From NCBI GenBank assembly GCA_963666425.2, contig OY762825.2, positions 2,208,001 through 2,272,000 of the forward strand: a stretch of 64,000 nucleotides of DNA. Direction: 5' to 3'. This stretch comes from Bacillota bacterium. Its GTDB lineage: Bacteria; Bacillota; JAAYKD01. Under the pieces are notes generated by a model that was given only the letters and a program-made list of their open reading frames with translations, was not told where the DNA came from and made no database searches. Below are positions 13,902 to 22,781 of the stretch, piece by piece; the stretch's first letter is position 1; each line of letters begins with the position of its first letter. Made by a program: the position numbers and the translations under genes.

Positions 13902-14300
13902 GTGGTACAATATCGCATTAAAAATTATGGTACCGGCCGCCGCAAAAGTTCTGTGGCTCGGGTTCGTTTGATTCCCGGAACCGGTAATATCATCGTAAAT
14001 AATCGTGGCATTGACGAATATTTTGGTCTTGCTACCCTAAAGCTAATCATTCGCCAACCCTTGGTCCTCACCAAGACCGAAGGCGACTATGATGTCATCT
14101 GCAAAGTGGAGGGCGGCGGTAATTCCGGTCAAGCCGGTGCGATCCGTCATGGCATCTCCCGCGCGCTCTGCTCGATCGACGCGGAAATGCGTCCGATCTT
14201 GAAAAAGGCTGGTTTTCTTACCCGTGATCAACGGATGAAAGAACGTAAGAAATATGGCTTAAAGAAAGCACGCAAAGCGCCGCAATTCTCCAAACGTTAA
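13902..14300 (+). CDS. rpsI: 30S ribosomal protein S9
   Basis: [46 protein letters not shown]. Confidence 0.99.
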
Positions 14301-14334
14301 TTCTCCCGCAAACAAAACTTACGAACAAAACACG

Positions 14335-14373
14335 AGCAGCTATCGGATTTGTGGAATCCGACAGCTGCTTTTT
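14335..14373 (+). terminator. intrinsic terminator after rpsI
   Basis: AGCAGCTATCGGATT-TGTGG-AATCCGACAGCTGCT followed by a T-run. Confidence 0.8.
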
Positions 14374-14583
14374 GTCTGTACAAAATTTGGTCAATGGTTT
14401 TTTCCGGCTCGGGATTGTCGGACGATTAGAGCTAATTAGATTGCATAAAAAATAAAGCTGAGAAATAGTTATAATATTTAGAAGGAATTTTAAAAAAAGT
14501 GTCAAAAGAATATACAAAGACCTACTGACAGAGATGGCGATCACAAAGTTTGCCAAATCACAGCGAATCGAAGGAGGAAAAAA

Positions 14584-15432
14584 ATGAAACCATTGATCCT
14601 GATCACGGGGGAAGACGAATTTGATCCCAAATCGCACAACCCATTTTATCTGATTAAGCGCAGCTATGGCACGGCAGTGGCCGGCGCGGGCGGCACGGCC
14701 GTGATGCCGCTGGACCCGGCGCAGTGGGCGAGTTATGCCGAAATGGCGGATGGATTGCTGCTGACCGGCGGCGTGGATGTCCATCCGGCACGTTATAATG
14801 ATATCTTTATGGATTACGATCCGAATTCCGGAGCACCGGCGCCTTTTGTTATCAGCGTCACCCGGGATTCCATGGATATCCTGCTTTGCCAGGCATTTTT
14901 GCGGGCGGGTAAGCCAATCATGGGAATCGGACGCGGTTTGCAGGTGATCAATGTCGTTTTAGGCGGCACGATGGTCCAAGATATTGCGATTTTACTGCAG
15001 CAGGAACACCCGATTGGCCAGCACCACTGGGTTTCCACTACAGCCGGCAGTCAAATGCAGCAATTACTGGGAGAGAAGCTGGAAGTAAACAGTTATCATC
15101 ACATGGCAGTCAAGACGTTGGGTAATAATCTCAGCGTCAGCGCCTGGTCCGAAGATGGTCTGATCGAAGCCATCGAACATACCAGCCTGCCTGTTTTTGC
15201 GGTGCAGTGGCATCCGGAGACTTATCACACTGACGACGAAGAAATTCGAGCCCTGCATGCCGGTGTGACAGAACCGATCATGACGCTGGATGTCGAAGAA
15301 CTCGCAAAGCAGATCACGGCGACCGAACATAAAAAAGCCATTCCGGGTACTAAGACCGATGCGGATGTGGAATTGCCAACCGATAACGCATTGTTTAACT
15401 ACTTTATTGCTTTATGTCAAAAGGAGGGCTAA
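14584..15432 (+). CDS. peptidase C26 / PuuD-like class I glutamine-amidotransferase-fold protein, copy A1 (catalytic Cys replaced by Gly)
   Basis: DGLLLTGGVDVHPARY, KPIMGIGRGLQVINV, VNSYHH, AVQWHPE. Confidence 0.9.
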   Translation: MKPLILITGEDEFDPKSHNPFYLIKRSYGTAVAGAGGTAVMPLDPAQWASYAEMADGLLLTGGVDVHPARYNDIFMDYDPNSGAPAPFVISVTRDSMDILLCQAFLRAGKPIMGIGRGLQVINVVLGGTMVQDIAILLQQEHPIGQHHWVSTTAGSQMQQLLGEKLEVNSYHHMAVKTLGNNLSVSAWSEDGLIEAIEHTSLPVFAVQWHPETYHTDDEEIRALHAGVTEPIMTLDVEELAKQITATEHKKAIPGTKTDADVELPTDNALFNYFIALCQKEG

Positions 15433-15436
15433 TAAA

Positions 15437-16162
15437 GTGAAAAAACCGATTATCATGATCATGTGGGGCTCTTGTTTGGAGAATCAGTTTCTCTCTCATG
15501 CTAATATGCTGACCAAGGCCTACAGCGCGGCGATTACCGCCGGCGGCGGCATTCCGCTTTTGCCGCTGGTGCAAAGTCAGGTGAAGGAATATGCCAAGCT
15601 GGCCGATGGTTTGCTGCTGCCGGGTGCGATGGGCTACTCGCCCAAACCGGAGCTGGCAAAACACCTGGCAGCAGAGCGTTTTTCACGTCAATCGGATTTT
15701 GAGAGTGAATTGTATCAGGCTTTCAAGGCCGCCGGCAAACCGATCCTGGGGATTTGCGCCGGCTGCCAGAAAATGAATTGTGAAGAAGGCGGCACTTTAC
15801 AGCTTGATTTTCGAAAAATGTTTGGTATAGAACATAGTGTCGGTGTGACGCATGCGGTAGATGCGGTCGCCGGCTCGCTGCTGAATGAAATTTGGGGTGA
15901 GCATTTTTTCATCAACAGTTATCATGGCTTTCGCATCGCGCAATTAGGTAAAGGTTTTAGAATTACAGCCTATTCGCCGGAAGGGATTCCCGAGGCGATT
16001 GAGCATCAGGAATTGCCATTCTACGGAACACAGTTCCATCCGGAGCGGATGCGCGGTGATTTTCCCAATCCACCGGAAGGGCCCAATTCCGATCCTCTTT
16101 TCCAGCGCTTTGTTGAATTGTGCGCCACGGCTGCGGCTCAGAACGAACTGCACGGGTGCTAA
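15437..16162 (+). CDS. peptidase C26 / gamma-glutamyl hydrolase-like protein, copy B1 (Cys-His-Glu triad intact)
   Basis: GTG start after AAGGAGG; DGLLLPG, KPILGICAGCQ, INSYH, GTQFHPE. Confidence 0.9.
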   Translation: MKKPIIMIMWGSCLENQFLSHANMLTKAYSAAITAGGGIPLLPLVQSQVKEYAKLADGLLLPGAMGYSPKPELAKHLAAERFSRQSDFESELYQAFKAAGKPILGICAGCQKMNCEEGGTLQLDFRKMFGIEHSVGVTHAVDAVAGSLLNEIWGEHFFINSYHGFRIAQLGKGFRITAYSPEGIPEAIEHQELPFYGTQFHPERMRGDFPNPPEGPNSDPLFQRFVELCATAAAQNELHGC

Positions 16163-16239
16163 AGAGACGTTCGTTCTCGCGTGGATGGTTGCAGCTTTCG
16201 CGTAAAATGATTTAAAAAACAGAGAATGGAGTGAATGAC

Positions 16240-17091
16240 TTGAAACCATTGATCCTGATCACGGGGGAAGACGAATTTGATCCCAAATCGCACAACCCAT
16301 TTTACCTGATTAAACGCAGCTATGGCACGGCAGTGGCCGGCGCGGGCGGCACAGCCGTAATGCCACTGGATCCGGTGCAGTGGGCGAGTTATGCCGAAAT
16401 GGCGGATGGTCTGCTGCTGACCGGCGGCGTGGATGTCCATCCGGCACGTTATAATGATATCTTTATGGATTACGATCCGAATTCCGGCGCACCGGCGCCT
16501 TTTGTTATCAGCGTCACCCGGGATTCCATGGATATCCTGCTTTGCCAGGCATTTTTGCGGGCGGGTAAGCCAATCATGGGAATCGGACGCGGTCTGCAGG
16601 TGATCAATGTCGTTTTAGGCGGCACGATGGTCCAGGATATTGCGATTTTGCTGCAGCAGGAACACCCGATTGGCCAGCACCACTGGGTTTCCACCACAGC
16701 CGGCAGTCAAATGCAGCAATTACTGGGAGAGAAACTGGAAGTAAACAGTTATCATCACATGGCAGTCAAGACGTTGGGAAAGGATCTGAGTGTCAGCGCC
16801 TGGTCCGAAGATGGTCTGATTGAAGCCATCGAGCATACCAGCCTGCCTGTTTTTGCGGTGCAGTGGCATCCGGAGACCTATCGAACCGATGACGAGGAAA
16901 TTCGAGCCCTGCATGCCGGTGTGACAGAACCGATCATGACGGTGGATGCCGATGAACTCGCAAAGCAGATCACGGCGACCGAACATAAAAAAGCCATTCC
17001 GGGTTATAAGACCGATGCGGATGTGGAATTGCCAACCGATAACGCATTGTTTAACTACTTTATTGCATTATGTCAAAAGGAGGGCAAATAA
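16240..17091 (+). CDS. peptidase C26-like protein, copy A2 (catalytic Cys replaced by Gly)
   Basis: Near-identical to A1 (about 10 aa differences by eye); TTG start at the position equivalent to the A1 ATG. Confidence 0.9.
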   Translation: MKPLILITGEDEFDPKSHNPFYLIKRSYGTAVAGAGGTAVMPLDPVQWASYAEMADGLLLTGGVDVHPARYNDIFMDYDPNSGAPAPFVISVTRDSMDILLCQAFLRAGKPIMGIGRGLQVINVVLGGTMVQDIAILLQQEHPIGQHHWVSTTAGSQMQQLLGEKLEVNSYHHMAVKTLGKDLSVSAWSEDGLIEAIEHTSLPVFAVQWHPETYRTDDEEIRALHAGVTEPIMTVDADELAKQITATEHKKAIPGYKTDADVELPTDNALFNYFIALCQKEGK

Positions 17092-17092
17092 A

Positions 17093-17809
17093 GTGAAAAA
17101 ACCGATCATCATGATCATGTGGGGCTCTTGTTTGGAGAATCAGTTTCTCTCTCACGGTATGATGCTGACCAAGGCCTACAGCGCGGCGATTACCGCCGGT
17201 GGCGGCATTCCGCTCTTGCCGCTGGTGCAGAGTCAAGTGATGGAATATGTCAAACTGGCCGATGGTTTGCTGCTGCCGGGCGGCATGGGTTATGTGCCGC
17301 GGCCTCAATTGGGAAGACATCTGGCAGCAGAACGCTTTTCACGTCAATCGGATTTTGAGAGTGAATTGTATCAGGCTTTCAAGGCCGCCGGCAAGCCGAT
17401 CCTGGGGATTTGCGCCGGCTGTCAGAAAATCAATTGTGAAGAAGGCGGCAGCCTGGAATTGGACTTTCGACGGAATACCGGCATAGAGCATCATATGGGC
17501 AGCAGCCACGCTGTAAAAGCAGCTGCGGGCAGTTTATTTGACCAATTGTTTGGTGATCATTTCCGCATCAACAGTTATCATGGTTATAAAATCAGCCAAT
17601 TGGGTGAGCAGCTAAAAGTGACGCTGCTGTCACCGGAAGGAATTCCCGAGGCGATTGAGCATCTGAAATATCCTATTTTTGGCACGCAATGGCATCCGGA
17701 GCGGATGCGCGGTGATTTTCCCAATCCACCGGAGGGCCCGGATACAACAGTGCTCTTCCGTCATTTCATTCGATTGTGTGGGGATCGACGGGATCAAGAG
17801 CAAGCTTAA
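17093..17809 (+). CDS. peptidase C26 / gamma-glutamyl hydrolase-like protein, copy B2 (triad intact)
   Basis: GTG start; KPILGICAGCQ, INSYH, GTQWHPE; paralog of B1. Confidence 0.9.
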   Translation: MKKPIIMIMWGSCLENQFLSHGMMLTKAYSAAITAGGGIPLLPLVQSQVMEYVKLADGLLLPGGMGYVPRPQLGRHLAAERFSRQSDFESELYQAFKAAGKPILGICAGCQKINCEEGGSLELDFRRNTGIEHHMGSSHAVKAAAGSLFDQLFGDHFRINSYHGYKISQLGEQLKVTLLSPEGIPEAIEHLKYPIFGTQWHPERMRGDFPNPPEGPDTTVLFRHFIRLCGDRRDQEQA

Positions 17810-18328
17810 GAAGAAGAAAACAAATAGTACGCCAGCGATAAAAGCTCGGTAGAATGCTGCAGTCCAAAGAGGTAAAGAATACAAAAGCTGGATCCTGGCA
17901 GCAATTCCAAGCAAAAAAACTTGTCATAAATTTACATATACATACGATTTATCAGAAACAGAAATTAAACAGGTCAATGAAATTAATTAGTTCTAAATAA
18001 AGCAACATTCAGCCAATTTTTCGAGCATCTAAAGAATAATATTAGCTAAATTTTATAAAAATGCAGAATGCTGCAAACCGACATTTACCAAAATATGTAA
18101 TTAATACAACATAATTTTCAAAATAAATAAGATCATCAAAGGCACCCCGACGAACTCTACGTTTAAAATGCATATCCGACAGAAAGAAATAGTATTAAAA
18201 AAAAAGGAATTCGATATGTGGTTGCATAATGAATAAGAAGACAGATTTCTGTCAATGGTTGTTCTATTTCGAATGGAATCGATGTGCGACCCGAATAAAA
18301 CGGAATGCATTAAAGGAGGAGTGTTGCG

Positions 18329-19660
18329 ATGAAGACAGGAATTGTAGGTCCAAAGATTACTGTTGAGAGAATCATATCGAACTTGGAAACCAAAAAACTC
18401 TTTGTTGAATATGTTCCCATCATTTATGAAAAACTGCAGGATGCTGTGGCACTGGTACGAGCACATATCGGAGTCGTGGATAATTTTTATTTCACCGGTC
18501 CGATACCGTACCACTATATCCGGACAAAAATGACCTTGCCATGTCCGGTGGAATACCGTACGGTAGATAGTAATGCCTTTGTTGTGATGCTGTTTCAAGC
18601 CAATTATCATTTTCACTGTGATATCAAAAAGGTGACTGCAGATTTTTACGATAACACGAACCTTGCCAAAGCTTATAACCTTTTAGAAATACCCGCTTCC
18701 CAAGTAAAGATCCTGGAAGCGCAATATGATATTTTCGACAATGAGTATCCGGAAAAAAACGCGGAATTTCATATTGCCAACATTGCGGAAGGAAATGCAA
18801 ATTTCTGCCTGACCGGAACCGAGCGAACTTACGAAATACTGAAAGCAAAAGGTTATCCCGTTATTATGGCCCAGCCTTCTCAGGAGCAGCCGGAAATGCA
18901 GATCAATCAGCTGCGCTTGCGTAATGTGATGGCTTTACGGGATGAAAATGAATCTTCAGTTATTTCTATCGCGGTGGAATATGGTGTTGAACAGGAAGGT
19001 GCCATTACCACCGAGCTGCAGAATTATCAGATCCGCGGACAGATTATGGAGAAGATTTATTATTACGCTCAGAGATTGGATGCGGCAGTGGAAAAGCAGG
19101 AGAATGGTGACCTGATCTATCGCATCTACACCACCAAATCGATTCTCAGCGATGAAACCAGCGGCTACCGCAAACTGCGCTTGTTGGATGAATTGCCGGG
19201 TCTCTTTGGGGTCGTCAAAGTCGGCATTGGCATCGGCCTTGGTGAGACGACGGCAGAAGCGAAGAGGAATGCTGATTTTGGCTGTGAACGGGCGAGTAAT
19301 TACGAAACCGACTGCTTCTTTATTGTCTATGATGACCAGAAAATCGCTGGGCCGATCATCCAGACCGAAGTGGTCAAAAAGAATGAAGAAATTAATGGCG
19401 AACTCTATTTAATCTCCCGGGATACGCAGGTGGGTTTGGATAAATTGATCATTATCGATGCAGTCCTCGACCAATATGGGGTTGATGTGATCACCCCGGG
19501 AGAATTGGCACGTTTATGCGAATTGCCTCTGAACAGAGTGAATCGTCTGATCACCAAATTAGAATCATCGGGTTACGCTAGAGTCATCGGCAAAAAGCCG
19601 TTGAATGGTTCGGGTCGTCCCAGCCGTCTCGTCCAAATTAACCTTAAAAAGCGGATTTAA
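18329..19660 (+). CDS. putative transcriptional regulator (sensor-like N-terminus, central GGDEF/cyclase-like fold, C-terminal winged HTH)
   Basis: N-terminal GIVGP...FTGPIPY, central VGIGIGLGETTAEAKRNA, C-terminal ITPGELARLCELPLNRVNRLITKLESSGYA...GRPSRL. Confidence 0.7.
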   Translation: MKTGIVGPKITVERIISNLETKKLFVEYVPIIYEKLQDAVALVRAHIGVVDNFYFTGPIPYHYIRTKMTLPCPVEYRTVDSNAFVVMLFQANYHFHCDIKKVTADFYDNTNLAKAYNLLEIPASQVKILEAQYDIFDNEYPEKNAEFHIANIAEGNANFCLTGTERTYEILKAKGYPVIMAQPSQEQPEMQINQLRLRNVMALRDENESSVISIAVEYGVEQEGAITTELQNYQIRGQIMEKIYYYAQRLDAAVEKQENGDLIYRIYTTKSILSDETSGYRKLRLLDELPGLFGVVKVGIGIGLGETTAEAKRNADFGCERASNYETDCFFIVYDDQKIAGPIIQTEVVKKNEEINGELYLISRDTQVGLDKLIIIDAVLDQYGVDVITPGELARLCELPLNRVNRLITKLESSGYARVIGKKPLNGSGRPSRLVQINLKKRI

Positions 19661-19671
19661 TCCGCTTTTTT
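19646..19671 (+). terminator. hairpin/terminator overlapping the regulator stop codon
   Basis: AAAAAGCGGAT-TTA-ATCCGCTTTTTT. Confidence 0.65.
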
Positions 19672-19879
19672 GGTTGTTTTGGCAGAGGGTTTCGATGATA
19701 CAAAAACAAAATCATGCAAGGGAGGGTTGTAGCGGTATTGCCGAGTTCAATTTTTAATCGGAATTATTCGTTGAGATCTTATTATCGGCAGCAATGTGTA
19801 AAATGAAAAGAAATGATGGAATCAAGACAGCTCTTGTAGGGACAAACTGTCTGACAGAACTCAGAATGGAGGATTTGAT

Positions 19880-20665
19880 ATGACCATTATTCCAGGGAAG
19901 ATTTTTTCCTTTCTCGTCCTGATCGTGCTGAGCATAATAACGGTTTACATGATTAAGAGGATGCAGACGAGCAGTGAACCGGTGGATGTTCGTCGTTTAG
20001 CCGGATTGGATGCGCTGCAGGAAGTGGTTGGCCGTGCTACGGAAACCGGACGCCCCATCCATTACAACCCCGGCATGGGTTCCGTTGAAAGCGCCAGTAC
20101 CGGCGCACGTGTTTTGGGCGGTATGGAAGTTTTGGGCTGGCTGAGTAACCAATGTGCCCGCTATGATACACGCTTGATTTCAACTTACTGTGCACCTTCC
20201 ACTTACGCAATCGCGCGCGAAGTCATTCGGAACGGATACGTGCAGGCAGGAAAACCAGAAAGTATGAATGAAGAAACCGCACAATTTTTATCCAGCGACC
20301 AAATGGCATTTGCTATGGGCGCAGTATCCATTATGCAGCGGGAACGCATCGCCTCTAATGTGCTGATCGGCAGCTACGGCGCAGAATGCCTGCTGTTGGC
20401 GGAAGCCGGCAATACCCTGGGCGCGATCCAGATTTCCGGTGATACCAATGCTTACCAATTGCCTTTCCTGATTGTTACTTGCGACTATTCTTTGATTGGT
20501 GAAGAGCTCTTTGCCGCCGGCGCCGTTTTGAGCAACAATCGCGATGTTTACGGTTCTTTGATTGCGCAGGATTACGGTAAATTGGCCGCTGTGGTCTTGA
20601 TCATCGCCGGCAGTGTGATGGCGACCTTCGGCAATACGGTTTTAACAAAATTATTCAGTTGGTAG
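19880..20665 (+). CDS. DUF6754-like membrane-anchored protein
   Basis: N-terminal TM, VRRLAGLDALQEVVGRATETGRPIHY, QLPFLIVTCDYSLIGEELFAAGA, C-terminal TM; family recognised from memory. Confidence 0.75.
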   Translation: MTIIPGKIFSFLVLIVLSIITVYMIKRMQTSSEPVDVRRLAGLDALQEVVGRATETGRPIHYNPGMGSVESASTGARVLGGMEVLGWLSNQCARYDTRLISTYCAPSTYAIAREVIRNGYVQAGKPESMNEETAQFLSSDQMAFAMGAVSIMQRERIASNVLIGSYGAECLLLAEAGNTLGAIQISGDTNAYQLPFLIVTCDYSLIGEELFAAGAVLSNNRDVYGSLIAQDYGKLAAVVLIIAGSVMATFGNTVLTKLFSW

Positions 20666-20678
20666 GAGGTGAGCGTAA

Positions 20679-21299
20679 ATGAAAAGAACAGTTCCGTTGA
20701 TCATTGCCTTTATAGTTGGTATGGGTTTATTGTTGGATAACTTTATTAAACTTACTCCGTTGAATACTTCCATGGTGACTTTGCGTTCCTGGCTGGTTAT
20801 CATTGCCTTGTTTTCCCTGATGGTGGCAGCGCTCAACCTTTTAATGGTGCATATCCCACGGATCATCAAACGCAAAGGTACTTGGTCACAGAGTATTGTC
20901 CTGGTTACTTTTATGCTGCTGACCATTATTAGCGGTATTTTCATCGGTACCAAAGGGACAATCTATCAGACTCTTTATACCGGTATTATGACGCCGGGCG
21001 GTTCTACCGTCAATGCGTTATTGGCCTTCTTTATTGCTTCCGCAGCAGTGCGGACCTTCCGGGCTAGAAATCTGGAATCCACACTCCTCTTGATTACTGC
21101 CATTATTCTGATGTTATCCAATGTCACCATTGGTAATGCGATCAGTCAGTACATTCCCGTTGTTGGTAATTGGATCACCAATGTACCGAATGCGACTGCA
21201 CAGCGGGGCTTGATTATTTCCAGTTCACTGGCCTTTGTCACCATTAACTTAAGAAATATCCTCGGCTTCAGCACCCAGTGGCTGGGCGGCAAAGATTAG
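20679..21299 (+). CDS. uncharacterised integral membrane protein (about 6 TM)
   Basis: Hydrophobic; LLAFFIASAAVRTFRARN, VPNATAQRGLII; RBS GGAGG. Confidence 0.8.
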   Translation: MKRTVPLIIAFIVGMGLLLDNFIKLTPLNTSMVTLRSWLVIIALFSLMVAALNLLMVHIPRIIKRKGTWSQSIVLVTFMLLTIISGIFIGTKGTIYQTLYTGIMTPGGSTVNALLAFFIASAAVRTFRARNLESTLLLITAIILMLSNVTIGNAISQYIPVVGNWITNVPNATAQRGLIISSSLAFVTINLRNILGFSTQWLGGKD

Positions 21300-21311
21300 G
21301 GGGGCGGGCAG

Positions 21312-22154
21312 ATGAAAAAGTTTAACATCTTCGATCTCGATAAAAGAATTACTTATCTCTTACTGCTGATTATGATTGTTTTCCCCTTGCTCTATCCGAT
21401 TGGGATTGCCATCAAACCATCGGAAAACACCATCCTTGCCTATAATTATGTGGAATCCTTAAAACCAGGTTCTTCCGTCATTCTCTTTATTGACTTTGGC
21501 ATGGGCAATAGTGCAGAACTGACACCGCAGGTGATCGCTTCTTTAAAACACTTTGCCAGGAAAGACCTGAAAGTATATGCCGCTACGCAAGTGCCGGAAA
21601 TGGCGACCGCCCTTGAATCGTATTTGGAGCAGACTTATGGGGCAGCAGGCAAGGTCTACGGTGAAGATTATATCGACCTAGGCTACTTTGCCGGTGCAGA
21701 ATCTGCCATCGGCGCCATGGGTGATAGCCTGATTGCTGTCTTTAAAACGGATAGCAGAGGCACTGATCTGACCAAGATTCCGATGATGAAATCTGTTGTG
21801 AAATTGCCTGATATTAACGTGGTTTTTGCTGTGACGGCATCCGGCACAATTCCATTCATCCGTCAGTGCAATGCCAAGTTCGGTATGCCGATTATTTTCT
21901 CGGTCAATGCCGTCATGGGACCTGCCAATGTACCTTATGTTCAATCCGGACAAGCGGTATCCGTGCTGGTAGGTAGTCCCGCTGCCGCGCAATATGAAAC
22001 GATCATCGGCGAGCCGGGTGTAGCAACTGCCGCCATGGATGCGCAATCGCTGGCTCATGTTATCATCATTCTTTTGATTGTTTGGGGTAATATTGGCTAT
22101 TTTGTGGAAAAACGTCAAAAGCAAGCAAAAAAATCAGAAGAAAAGAAAGCCTAA
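21312..22154 (+). CDS. uncharacterised protein with 2 TM segments and a large soluble domain
   Basis: TM - alpha/beta domain (YGEDYIDLGYFAG, PYVQSGQ, AAAQYE, MDAQSLAH) - TM - basic tail. Confidence 0.8.
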   Translation: MKKFNIFDLDKRITYLLLLIMIVFPLLYPIGIAIKPSENTILAYNYVESLKPGSSVILFIDFGMGNSAELTPQVIASLKHFARKDLKVYAATQVPEMATALESYLEQTYGAAGKVYGEDYIDLGYFAGAESAIGAMGDSLIAVFKTDSRGTDLTKIPMMKSVVKLPDINVVFAVTASGTIPFIRQCNAKFGMPIIFSVNAVMGPANVPYVQSGQAVSVLVGSPAAAQYETIIGEPGVATAAMDAQSLAHVIIILLIVWGNIGYFVEKRQKQAKKSEEKKA

Positions 22155-22166
22155 GGAGGTGCACTA

Positions 22167-22781
22167 ATGCAAATCAGTAATAATCCTGTCGTTTGGTTGG
22201 CCGCCTTTGTTACGGTCTCGATCCTCAGTTTCGTTTTCTGGAATGACAGTCCGTTTTATAAATATGTGCAAAGCGCTTATTTAGGCGTAGCTGCTGGTAT
22301 CACGGTGGTGGTTGGCTGGGGCAATATAAAAAGTCAGGTGATTGCTCCTTTAGCAAAAGGTGACTACAGCATGGTTGTGCCGATTATTTTCGGCTGCCTC
22401 CTGCTGATCCGCTTTATTCCCGGTTTAAATTGGGTCGCACGATATCCGGTCGCAATCTTAGTCGCCGGCGGCGCCGGCCTAGGCTTGGCCAATACCGTGC
22501 AGGCACAGTTTGTCAGTCAGATCAAAGCTGCTTTACTGCCTCTCAACAACATCAATAATCTGATCATGTTTGTCGGTTTAATCGCGGTGATTGCCTTCTT
22601 TTTCCTGACCGGTCGGACCACGCATGCGATTGAGAAATTTAAACTTGGTTGGCTGACCTATCTTGGCCGCCTCGTTTTGATGATTGCTTTCGGTGCAGCC
22701 TTTGGTACCACGGTCATGGGACGCTGTTCCATACTGATTGGCCGTATGCAGTTCCTTTTGACCGATTTACTCGGTTTATAA
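22167..22781 (+). CDS. uncharacterised integral membrane protein (about 6 TM)
   Basis: DSPFYKYVQSAYLGVAAG, GRLVLMIAFGAAFGTTVMGR; RBS AAGGAGG. Confidence 0.8.
   Translation: MQISNNPVVWLAAFVTVSILSFVFWNDSPFYKYVQSAYLGVAAGITVVVGWGNIKSQVIAPLAKGDYSMVVPIIFGCLLLIRFIPGLNWVARYPVAILVAGGAGLGLANTVQAQFVSQIKAALLPLNNINNLIMFVGLIAVIAFFFLTGRTTHAIEKFKLGWLTYLGRLVLMIAFGAAFGTTVMGRCSILIGRMQFLLTDLLGL

Follow-up and report, generated by a model that had tools for sequence, protein, structure and literature searches.

A Peptidase_C26 paralog that lacks the catalytic cysteine is conserved beside a cysteine-bearing partner in bacteria and probably forms a two-part enzyme with it

In a 64,000-nucleotide (nt) stretch of a Bacillota genome (contig OY762825.2, positions 2,208,001 to 2,272,000; hereafter the window), four tandem genes, A1, B1, A2 and B2, encode proteins of the Peptidase_C26 family, which has the class I glutamine amidotransferase (GATase) fold. 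The A proteins have lost the nucleophile Cys, A is conserved nonetheless, it is strictly adjacent to or fused with B, and the two have diverged together. Sequence comparisons and structural models suggest that A and B are probably one two-part enzyme: a heteromeric amide hydrolase in which A would be non-catalytic, B would be catalytic, and the two would dimerize through their N-terminal halves. Physical binding of A to B, a lid role for an insertion in A, and the type of substrate are what we infer beyond these observations. The genes and the parts of A1 that matter here are as follows.

14584..15432, + strand: A1, 282 amino acids (aa), Peptidase_C26 paralog whose nucleophile position is Gly; TGGVDVHP and HPE kept
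14929..14931, + strand: GGA codon for Gly116 of A1, replacing the catalytic Cys
15220..15375, + strand: A1 insertion after HPE, residues ~213-264, specific to long A forms
15437..16162, + strand: B1, 241 aa, GTG start, Peptidase_C26; B isoform type 1
16240..17091, + strand: A2, second A copy, 97% protein identity to A1; GGA at 16585-16587
17093..17809, + strand: B2, 238 aa, GTG start, Cys107 at 17411-17413; B isoform type 2

All four proteins matched PF07722 (Peptidase_C26; cut-off 20.5 bits), the A proteins at 165.5 and 165.1 bits and the B proteins at 119.6 and 116.8 bits. The nucleophile elbow reads GIGRGLQ in both A copies and GICRG in relatives, and in a HMMER alignment to Lin1909 (3fij) the Gly of A lies opposite the C of AICRG. 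The nucleophile Cys in G-x-C-x-G, a feature of active enzymes, is therefore absent from A1 and A2 (Gly) and present in B1 and B2 (Cys107, GICAG), while the His and Glu of the triad (HPE) are kept by all four. After HPE, A has ~50 residues that are extra relative to B and to short Gly-clade relatives. An earlier note on this stretch had described the GIGRGLQ elbow, GGA at 14929 and 16585, the retained HPE and the ~50-aa insertion, and the open reading frames (ORFs) and the alignment to 3fij bear this out. The note had also argued that GGA is two substitutions from a Cys codon. That is so for both A copies, but an ortholog (L009) encodes the Gly by GGC, which a single change would turn into TGC.

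With the A1 sequence as query, 3412 proteins were retrieved (E up to 0.001), and 120 of them were listed. When these 120 and the four window proteins were sorted with a motif expression, 38 had Gly at the nucleophile position and 79 had Cys; three were mis-hits and four gave no match. Among 19 aligned Gly-type proteins, 38-83% identical to A1, residues G116, R117 and G118 were invariant, Asn replaced the His of HPE in three, and no Cys, Ser or Thr was invariant. A profile of A was then run against 1.84 billion cluster representatives (50% identity), giving 26,753 matches (E up to 0.001). The best 150 were inspected: a Gly domain was present in 33, standing alone in 23, partial in 2 and part of a fusion in 8; the nucleophile was Asp in one C26 relative (P0147) and Asn in another (P0179).

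Residue frequencies were tabulated for domain hits of at least 150 residues, classed by nucleophile residue as Gly (89), canonical (264) or B-like (79); positions 63 and 117 also helped define the canonical and B-like classes, so those columns are circular for these two. The Gly class was defined by Gly alone, and G-R-G (G116, R117, G118) was present in 100% of its 89 domains; the loss of Cys is thus not confined to the window, as it would have been had A homologs elsewhere all kept the residue. Other positions were less well kept in the Gly domains than in the canonical and B-like domains: H210 (83% vs 99-100%), Q120 (75% vs 98%), N169 (64% vs 93-100%), H172 (83% vs 99-100%) and G62 (66% vs 98-100%). 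These figures indicate that catalytic and substrate positions are under relaxed constraint in the A clade.

A1 and A2 differ by 0.016 nonsynonymous (dN) and 0.139 synonymous (dS) substitutions per site. The resulting dN/dS of 0.12 indicates that A is under purifying selection, in agreement with the earlier claim that A is not in simple decay. The AlphaFold2 (AF2) model of A1 had a predicted local distance difference test score (pLDDT) of 87.4 and a predicted template modelling score (pTM) of 0.86, with the insertion folded as two helices, and a Foldseek search with the A model matched SpuA, Lin1909 and PuuD. The conservation of A, the dN/dS, the confident fold and the lack of an invariant Cys, Ser or Thr together argue that A is neither a pseudogene nor an enzyme with another obvious nucleophile, and judged by their sequences members of the Cys-less clade cannot be hydrolases on their own. 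An A that was merely a decaying, functionless duplicate, an intact-looking pseudogene, would be expected to lack the catalytic Cys, as A does. That reading is already contradicted by the conservation data, since A is intact in 6/6 family genomes, the clade takes in no fewer than 33 of the 50%-identity clusters, and A diverges about as slowly as B (mean distances 0.58 and 0.54); we regard it as having almost no chance of being correct.

In the window the end of A1 (15432) and the GTG of B1 (15437) are separated by 4 nt, and those of A2 (17091) and B2 (17093) by 1 nt, as the earlier note had said in placing each A 1-4 nt upstream of a B. AGGAGG lies upstream of the B1 GTG, and this together with the spacing fits translational coupling of A and B. 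For A2 itself, TTG at 16240, with GGAG upstream, is a likelier start than the alternative GTG at 16231.

The pairing extends well beyond the window. A scan of one genome per species matched at least 590 stretches. At least 555 of these encode a relative, and the 80 best were carried forward as loci. Seven of the 80 encoded a Gly domain, and each had a Cys-bearing C26 partner, directly downstream in six (one of which was A-B-B) and fused in one. In contrast, no second C26 ORF was present in the fetched flanks of any of the 72 loci with a single Cys gene, 57 of which had at least 700 nt on both sides. The last of the 80 loci had Ser at the nucleophile position and lay too near a contig end for a partner to be judged. 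A Ser nucleophile (GVSRG) is encoded at L055:5968-6714, in a Clostridiales metagenome-assembled genome, on a contig that stops just downstream. In an order-level relative (G006), separate genes occur in the order B-A.

Fusions gave the same picture. Two-domain relatives were collected with a 484-aa A-B fusion as query and from the earlier matches, and all 33 consisted of one Gly and one Cys domain, in the order A-B in 31 and B-A in 2. In six of the 33, the A part stops just past GIGRG, so that only its N-terminal ~120 residues are left. Thus the search for Cys-less C26 genes beside active ones that the earlier note had proposed gave 7/7 paired loci against 0/72 for single Cys genes, and 33/33 fusions. 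The 484-aa fusion is encoded in the window's own genome, outside the window, on the minus strand (L004:703-2157, equivalent to G000:C1 ~917.9-919.3 kb), and has GIGRG and NPE in its N-domain and GICLG and HPE in its C-domain. Its gene is downstream of a 'putative cyclase' gene (PF04199, kynurenine-formamidase-like) and a 216-aa gene without a Pfam match, all on one strand.

The Gly/Cys fusions also bear on whether A and B might instead be independent homo-oligomers that stay together only through acting on related substrates of one pathway, with A using another nucleophile or acting as a non-hydrolytic binding protein. The PuuD, SpuA and Lin1909 structure entries do contain several copies of one chain, and duplication of the fold is common: 11 of the best 150 representatives joined two Cys-bearing C26 domains in tandem within one chain of 445-645 aa (P0143, P0144, P0148, P0152, P0156, P0163, P0165, P0167, P0176, P0180 and P0186). 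Seven of these were included in the tree described below, and the halves of six (P0143, P0148, P0152, P0163, P0167 and P0186) were mutual closest relatives, P0156 being left unresolved. This suggests that the C26 fold underwent repeated internal duplications, and Cys-Cys fusions with sister halves imply that the fold often works as a pair. Independent homo-oligomers would not, however, account for Gly/Cys fusions in both orders, some with a truncated A, for the lack of an invariant Cys, Ser or Thr in A, for pairing at 7/7 against 0/72 loci, or for the scores of the fused and paired models given below, and we consider them improbable.

A tree of 87 rows was built by a quick IQ-TREE method. An A clade, with a Shimodaira-Hasegawa-like approximate likelihood ratio test (SH-aLRT) value of 99, united 21 of its 23 Gly rows, among them the N-halves of three A-B fusions, and a B clade of 23 rows (SH-aLRT 97) united the B rows with the C-halves of the same three fusions. 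Both clades were nested in a 58-row clade (SH-aLRT 95) that also contained some ordinary Cys forms. In two B-A fusions, P0125 and P0175, the Gly domain did not group with the main A clade. We do not claim that the Gly arose more than once, as an approximately unbiased (AU) test did not reject a single origin (p 0.131, log-likelihood difference 22.9). For 22 A/B pairs the pairwise distances in A and in B were strongly correlated (Mantel r 0.857; 0/5000 permutations as high), which shows, at the level of sequence, that A and B are inherited as a unit.

Structure predictions were made for the fused and the separate forms. The 484-aa fusion, modelled from 25 aligned fusions, gave pLDDT 89.5 and pTM 0.91 (pLDDT 88.5-89.5 over five models), and we infer from so high a pTM that the two domains of the chain pack on each other in a fixed way. 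The A1/B1 complex was modelled with purpose-made alignments (19 and 32 rows). Its interaction prediction score from aligned errors (ipSAE) was 0.89 (0.89, 0.87 and 0.89 in separate runs), compared with 0.00 for the best control, and it passed a mark reached by 58/80 solved complexes and 2/110 mismatched pairs. The runs had at least 93% of contacts in common, with partner pLDDT at least 85.

In the model, A would contribute residues 2-63, 171 and most of 213-264, the insertion, to the interface, and B residues 2-55, 65-91, 108, 111-112, 115-116, 120-123, 165 and 168. The predicted B interface takes in the atypical strand described below, the residue next to Cys107 on its C-terminal side, and Gln111 with the helix behind it. 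The lowest-error contacts joined A 22-41 with B 22-48, that is, the N-terminal strand-helix units, in a pseudo-symmetric arrangement. An N-terminal core interface fits the six truncated-A fusions, which keep exactly that part, and it fits the higher conservation of the N-half than of the C-half between the two B isoforms (below). Indirect support for a putative physical association of A with B comes from adjacency, the fusions, the pTM of the fused form and the complex score. The earlier note had proposed an A/B heteromer with a non-catalytic A, and adjacency, fusions, dN/dS and the predicted complex all lend it support.

The partner B has an intact triad in an altered pocket, as had been noted earlier. 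Both B proteins keep GICAGCQ and HPE, but Ala replaces the Arg that follows the Cys, and PGAMGY (or PGGMGY) takes the place of TGGxD; in B1, Cys107 is encoded at 15755-15757, the strand is PGAMGY, and the C-terminal tail is HPERMRGDFPNPPEGP. A search for B homologs gave 390 at E up to 0.001, of which 120 were listed. The listed homologs share the motif L-x-L-[PTS]-G-[AGST], from which the second Gly and the Asp are missing, and have A, L, Q, D, E, M or H rather than Arg after the Cys. They also share the tail HPERMRGDFPxPPEGPD and keep the Gln four residues after the Cys. According to a report on the Arabidopsis gamma-glutamyl peptidase GGP1, this Gln binds the alpha-carboxylate of the gamma-glutamyl group and the oxyanion hole is formed by main-chain amides (PMC12958103). 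Given the retained Gln and a main-chain oxyanion hole, the odd PGAMGY strand need not disable B. B is a distinct Cys-bearing clade that is probably active. Its pocket residues are NS-R-H-N compared with NS-Y-H-H in canonical forms, a difference which argues that the substrate of B is probably not that of PuuD.

A strictly complementary loss, in which A keeps the Arg and B loses it, was considered and rejected, since B has GICRG in 2/22 pairs (L012 and G006); there is a tendency only. A 'TGGW'-type Cys protein (P0295) belongs to the sister group of the B clade. It has the same longest-contig figure, 55,395, as a canonical GICRGHQ protein (P0333), and the two may be a further C26 pair, both Cys-bearing.

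The window had been described as holding two A/B pairs. Both pairs are there, but they are not equal duplicates: A1 and A2 are 97% identical in protein sequence and B1 and B2 only 74% (91% over the first 118 residues and 58% over the rest). The underlying repeat is a tract on the + strand covering A and the first ~115 codons of B:

14584..15790, + strand, with its partner at ~16240-17445: repeat tract, A plus the first ~115 codons of B

DNA identity is ~96% within the tract and ~62% after it, the switch lying inside B near codon 115, just after GICAGCQ. This indicates a recent duplication or gene conversion over A and the 5' half of B. A was present in 5/5 other genomes of the same family and 1/4 other genomes of the same order (E up to 1e-40). 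The six family genomes, with B' for B isoform type 2, are laid out as follows.

G000 (window): rpsI, A B A B', 443-aa gene, DUF6754 module of four genes
G001 (same genus): rpsI, A B', 443-aa gene, DUF6754 module of four genes
G002: rpsI, A B B', 443-aa gene, DUF6754 module of four genes
G003 (= L009): MgtE, A B B', DUF6754 module of four genes
G004: other genes, A B, DUF6754 module of four genes
G005: rpsI, A B B', 443-aa gene, then contig end

The window genome is the only one of the six with two A genes. Type 1 comprises B1 of the window and the first B of G002-G005; type 2 comprises B2 of the window, the B of G001 and the second B of G002, G003 and G005. B2 is 91% identical to the sole B of G001. 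In the four genomes with both types, identity between B and B' was higher in the N-half than in the C-half in every case (91/58, 70/56, 69/53 and 81/58%), so that by sequence B and B' are orthologous sets differing mostly in the C-terminal half. The layouts A-B, A-B-B' and A-B-A-B' across the family argue that one A serves two B isoforms.

The heteromeric amide hydrolase that we consider probable would work as follows. The Cys-His-Glu triad of B would do the chemistry, presumably the hydrolysis of a gamma-glutamyl or glutamine-type amide. The non-catalytic A would pair with B through the N-terminal halves of both as a pseudo-symmetric dimer, and in the window lineage A would lay its ~50-residue insertion over the region around the B nucleophile, where it would probably stabilize or shape the substrate site of B. 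One kind of A would serve two B isoforms whose differences lie mainly in the C-terminal half, which forms the pocket, and a recent duplication of A in the window genome would have given each B its own upstream A.

A bolder version, which we think doubtful, is that the pair splits one active site. The B pocket would be completed in trans by A, B would be inactive alone, and A with alternative B isoforms would make up a small combinatorial specificity set for amides brought in by the DUF6754 module encoded downstream. It is suggested by the loss from B of the Arg after the Cys and of the GGxD strand, set beside an A that lost the Cys, keeps an invariant Gly-Arg-Gly elbow and, in the window lineage, has an insertion that is predicted to cover the B elbow.

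The possibility was also considered that A is a ligand-binding sensor or regulatory subunit, the pocket of which binds glutamate or the gamma-glutamyl substrate and so controls B allosterically, its part going beyond that of a scaffold or lid. The change to Gly costs the nucleophile position no more than its side chain, A in the window still has TGGVDVHP, R117, Q120 and HPE, and R117 is at 100% in the 89 Gly-clade domains despite the lost catalysis. The pocket nevertheless decays over the clade, at Q120 (75%), N169 (64%) and H210 (83%), and the six fusions with only the N-terminal ~120 residues of A have no whole pocket. Pocket decay and truncation argue that ligand binding cannot be the clade-wide role of A, though it may hold in the window lineage; we find this reading unlikely.

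Several points weigh against the A/B heteromer. The site of window A is otherwise intact (TGGVD, R117, Q120, H210 and E212), and A there may bind a ligand or retain residual chemistry. The complex model may have passed through the model's memory of multi-copy C26 entries (3fij, 6vtv and 7d4r), and its passing does not separate A/B from predicted A/A or B/B assemblies. The Mantel correlation and the adjacency amount to co-inheritance; the relatives are not independent samples, and this is no proof of physical co-evolution. None of the four proteins reached any NCBIfam equivalog. For the PuuD equivalog NF008471 all four scored 44-49 bits against a cut-off of 266, from which it follows that they are not PuuD orthologs, and for the gamma-glutamyl-CDP-amidate hydrolase NF045546 they scored 42-59 bits against 250. 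Genomic context varies outside the family, so that the substrate cannot be read from the neighbors and the DUF6754 link is a family-level one. Finally, the RNA data do not show transcription of A/B: one 267-nt contig, at depth 2, matched 16609-16875 exactly (in two metatranscriptome runs of identical size), and a second, of 184 nt, overlapped the stretch by 18-19 nt only.

Enzyme-'prozyme' pairs, such as the trypanosomatid S-adenosylmethionine decarboxylase (AdoMetDC)/prozyme and deoxyhypusine synthase, are heteromers of an enzyme with a dead paralog that arose by duplication. The logic proposed for A/B is the same; the folds, chemistry and organisms are unrelated, and A/B is known here from sequences and models. 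As in such pseudoenzyme-enzyme heteromers, loss of the catalytic residue by one paralog is conserved under purifying selection. In the class I GATase heteromers (TrpG/TrpE, PabA/PabB, HisH/HisF and GuaA subunits), to which there were weak NCBIfam matches, the GATase fold likewise forms one subunit. Their partner is an unrelated ammonia-using synthase, whereas that of B would be a dead copy of the GATase fold, and no synthase was a conserved neighbor of A/B in the family genomes and distant A-B loci examined.

PuuD of E. coli (6vtv) and SpuA of P. aeruginosa (7d4r, 7d50 and 7d53), which are gamma-glutamyl-GABA (gamma-aminobutyrate)/polyamine hydrolases, belong to the same Pfam family and have the same fold as A and B. 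They matched the A model at Foldseek E 3e-21 to 9e-20, with template modelling (TM) scores of 0.75-0.78 on the target. B resembles PuuD and SpuA in its Cys-His-Glu triad and in the conserved Gln of GxCxGxQ, and differs in the replacement of the Arg and GGxD. Their entries hold one kind of chain, with Cys then Arg and a GGxD strand; here there are two diverged paralogs, of which A lacks the Cys. Lin1909 of Listeria innocua (3fij), an uncharacterized C26 protein, is the closest solved sequence (A 1.8e-29, B 3.5e-19) and is ~33% identical to A. It has a canonical AICRG with Cys, from which A differs by its Gly, and one kind of chain in 8 copies in the entry. Arabidopsis GGP1 (9k7i-9k7l), a C26-type gamma-glutamyl peptidase, is distant (TM ~0.6 on target) and, unlike A, has its Cys intact. 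The literature searched, subscription papers being outside its reach, yielded no account of C26 subunits that lack the Cys, nor of A/B pairing.

PuuD-like C26 proteins are annotated wholesale as 'gamma-glutamyl-gamma-aminobutyrate hydrolase family protein', an annotation that the A/B result corrects. A sizeable and diverse part of the family, 33 of the best 150 representatives of the A profile, is Cys-less and paired with a pocket-altered Cys partner. A/B thereby gives the class I glutamine-amidotransferase fold a clear and testable example of a putative pseudoenzyme subunit, for which natural fusions are ready for structural work. A soluble amide hydrolase, if that is what the pair proves to be, would also provide an experimental handle on the function of the DUF6754 membrane module.

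The remaining features of the locus are these.

Directly 5' of the C26 genes: rplQ, ecfA1, ecfA2, ecfT, truA, rplM and rpsI, a typical Bacillota block
14335..14369, + strand: hairpin with a 15-bp stem and a T run, directly 3' of rpsI
18329..19660, + strand: 443-aa protein with a weak C-terminal winged-helix match, between the C26 genes and the membrane module
19880..22781, + strand: genes for four membrane proteins of 261, 206, 280 and 204 aa, beginning with DUF6754

The hairpin is likely a terminator that splits the ribosomal-protein operon from the A-B genes. Upstream of A1, a promoter scan gave no convincing + strand site. A riboswitch or leader there was considered and rejected, since no Rfam match was found at E up to 1 in the region 14200-19900. 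An assembly artefact was ruled out as the source of the A-B-A-B arrangement: a DNA contig from a public run spans B1 to A2 (16048-16270) with no differences, and the copies differ from each other.

Around distant A-B genes the contexts were unrelated (amidase, amidohydrolase, parts of an ATP-binding cassette (ABC) peptide transporter, Gcn5-related N-acetyltransferases (GNATs), M42 peptidase and others), and the attempt to take a substrate from them was abandoned. Within the family the four-gene membrane module lies downstream of the C26 genes in 5/5 genomes where the contig reaches far enough, and it follows A-B also in genomes that have other genes upstream and lack the 443-aa gene. Its first gene matched DUF6754 at 248 bits and the other three had no Pfam match; a literature search found no paper mentioning DUF6754. 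The 443-aa protein, present in 4/6 family genomes, had a sub-threshold winged-helix match only (HTH_24, 17 bits), and in an atlas search it resembled clusters labelled 'transcriptional regulator', some of them with GTP cyclohydrolase III-like domains.

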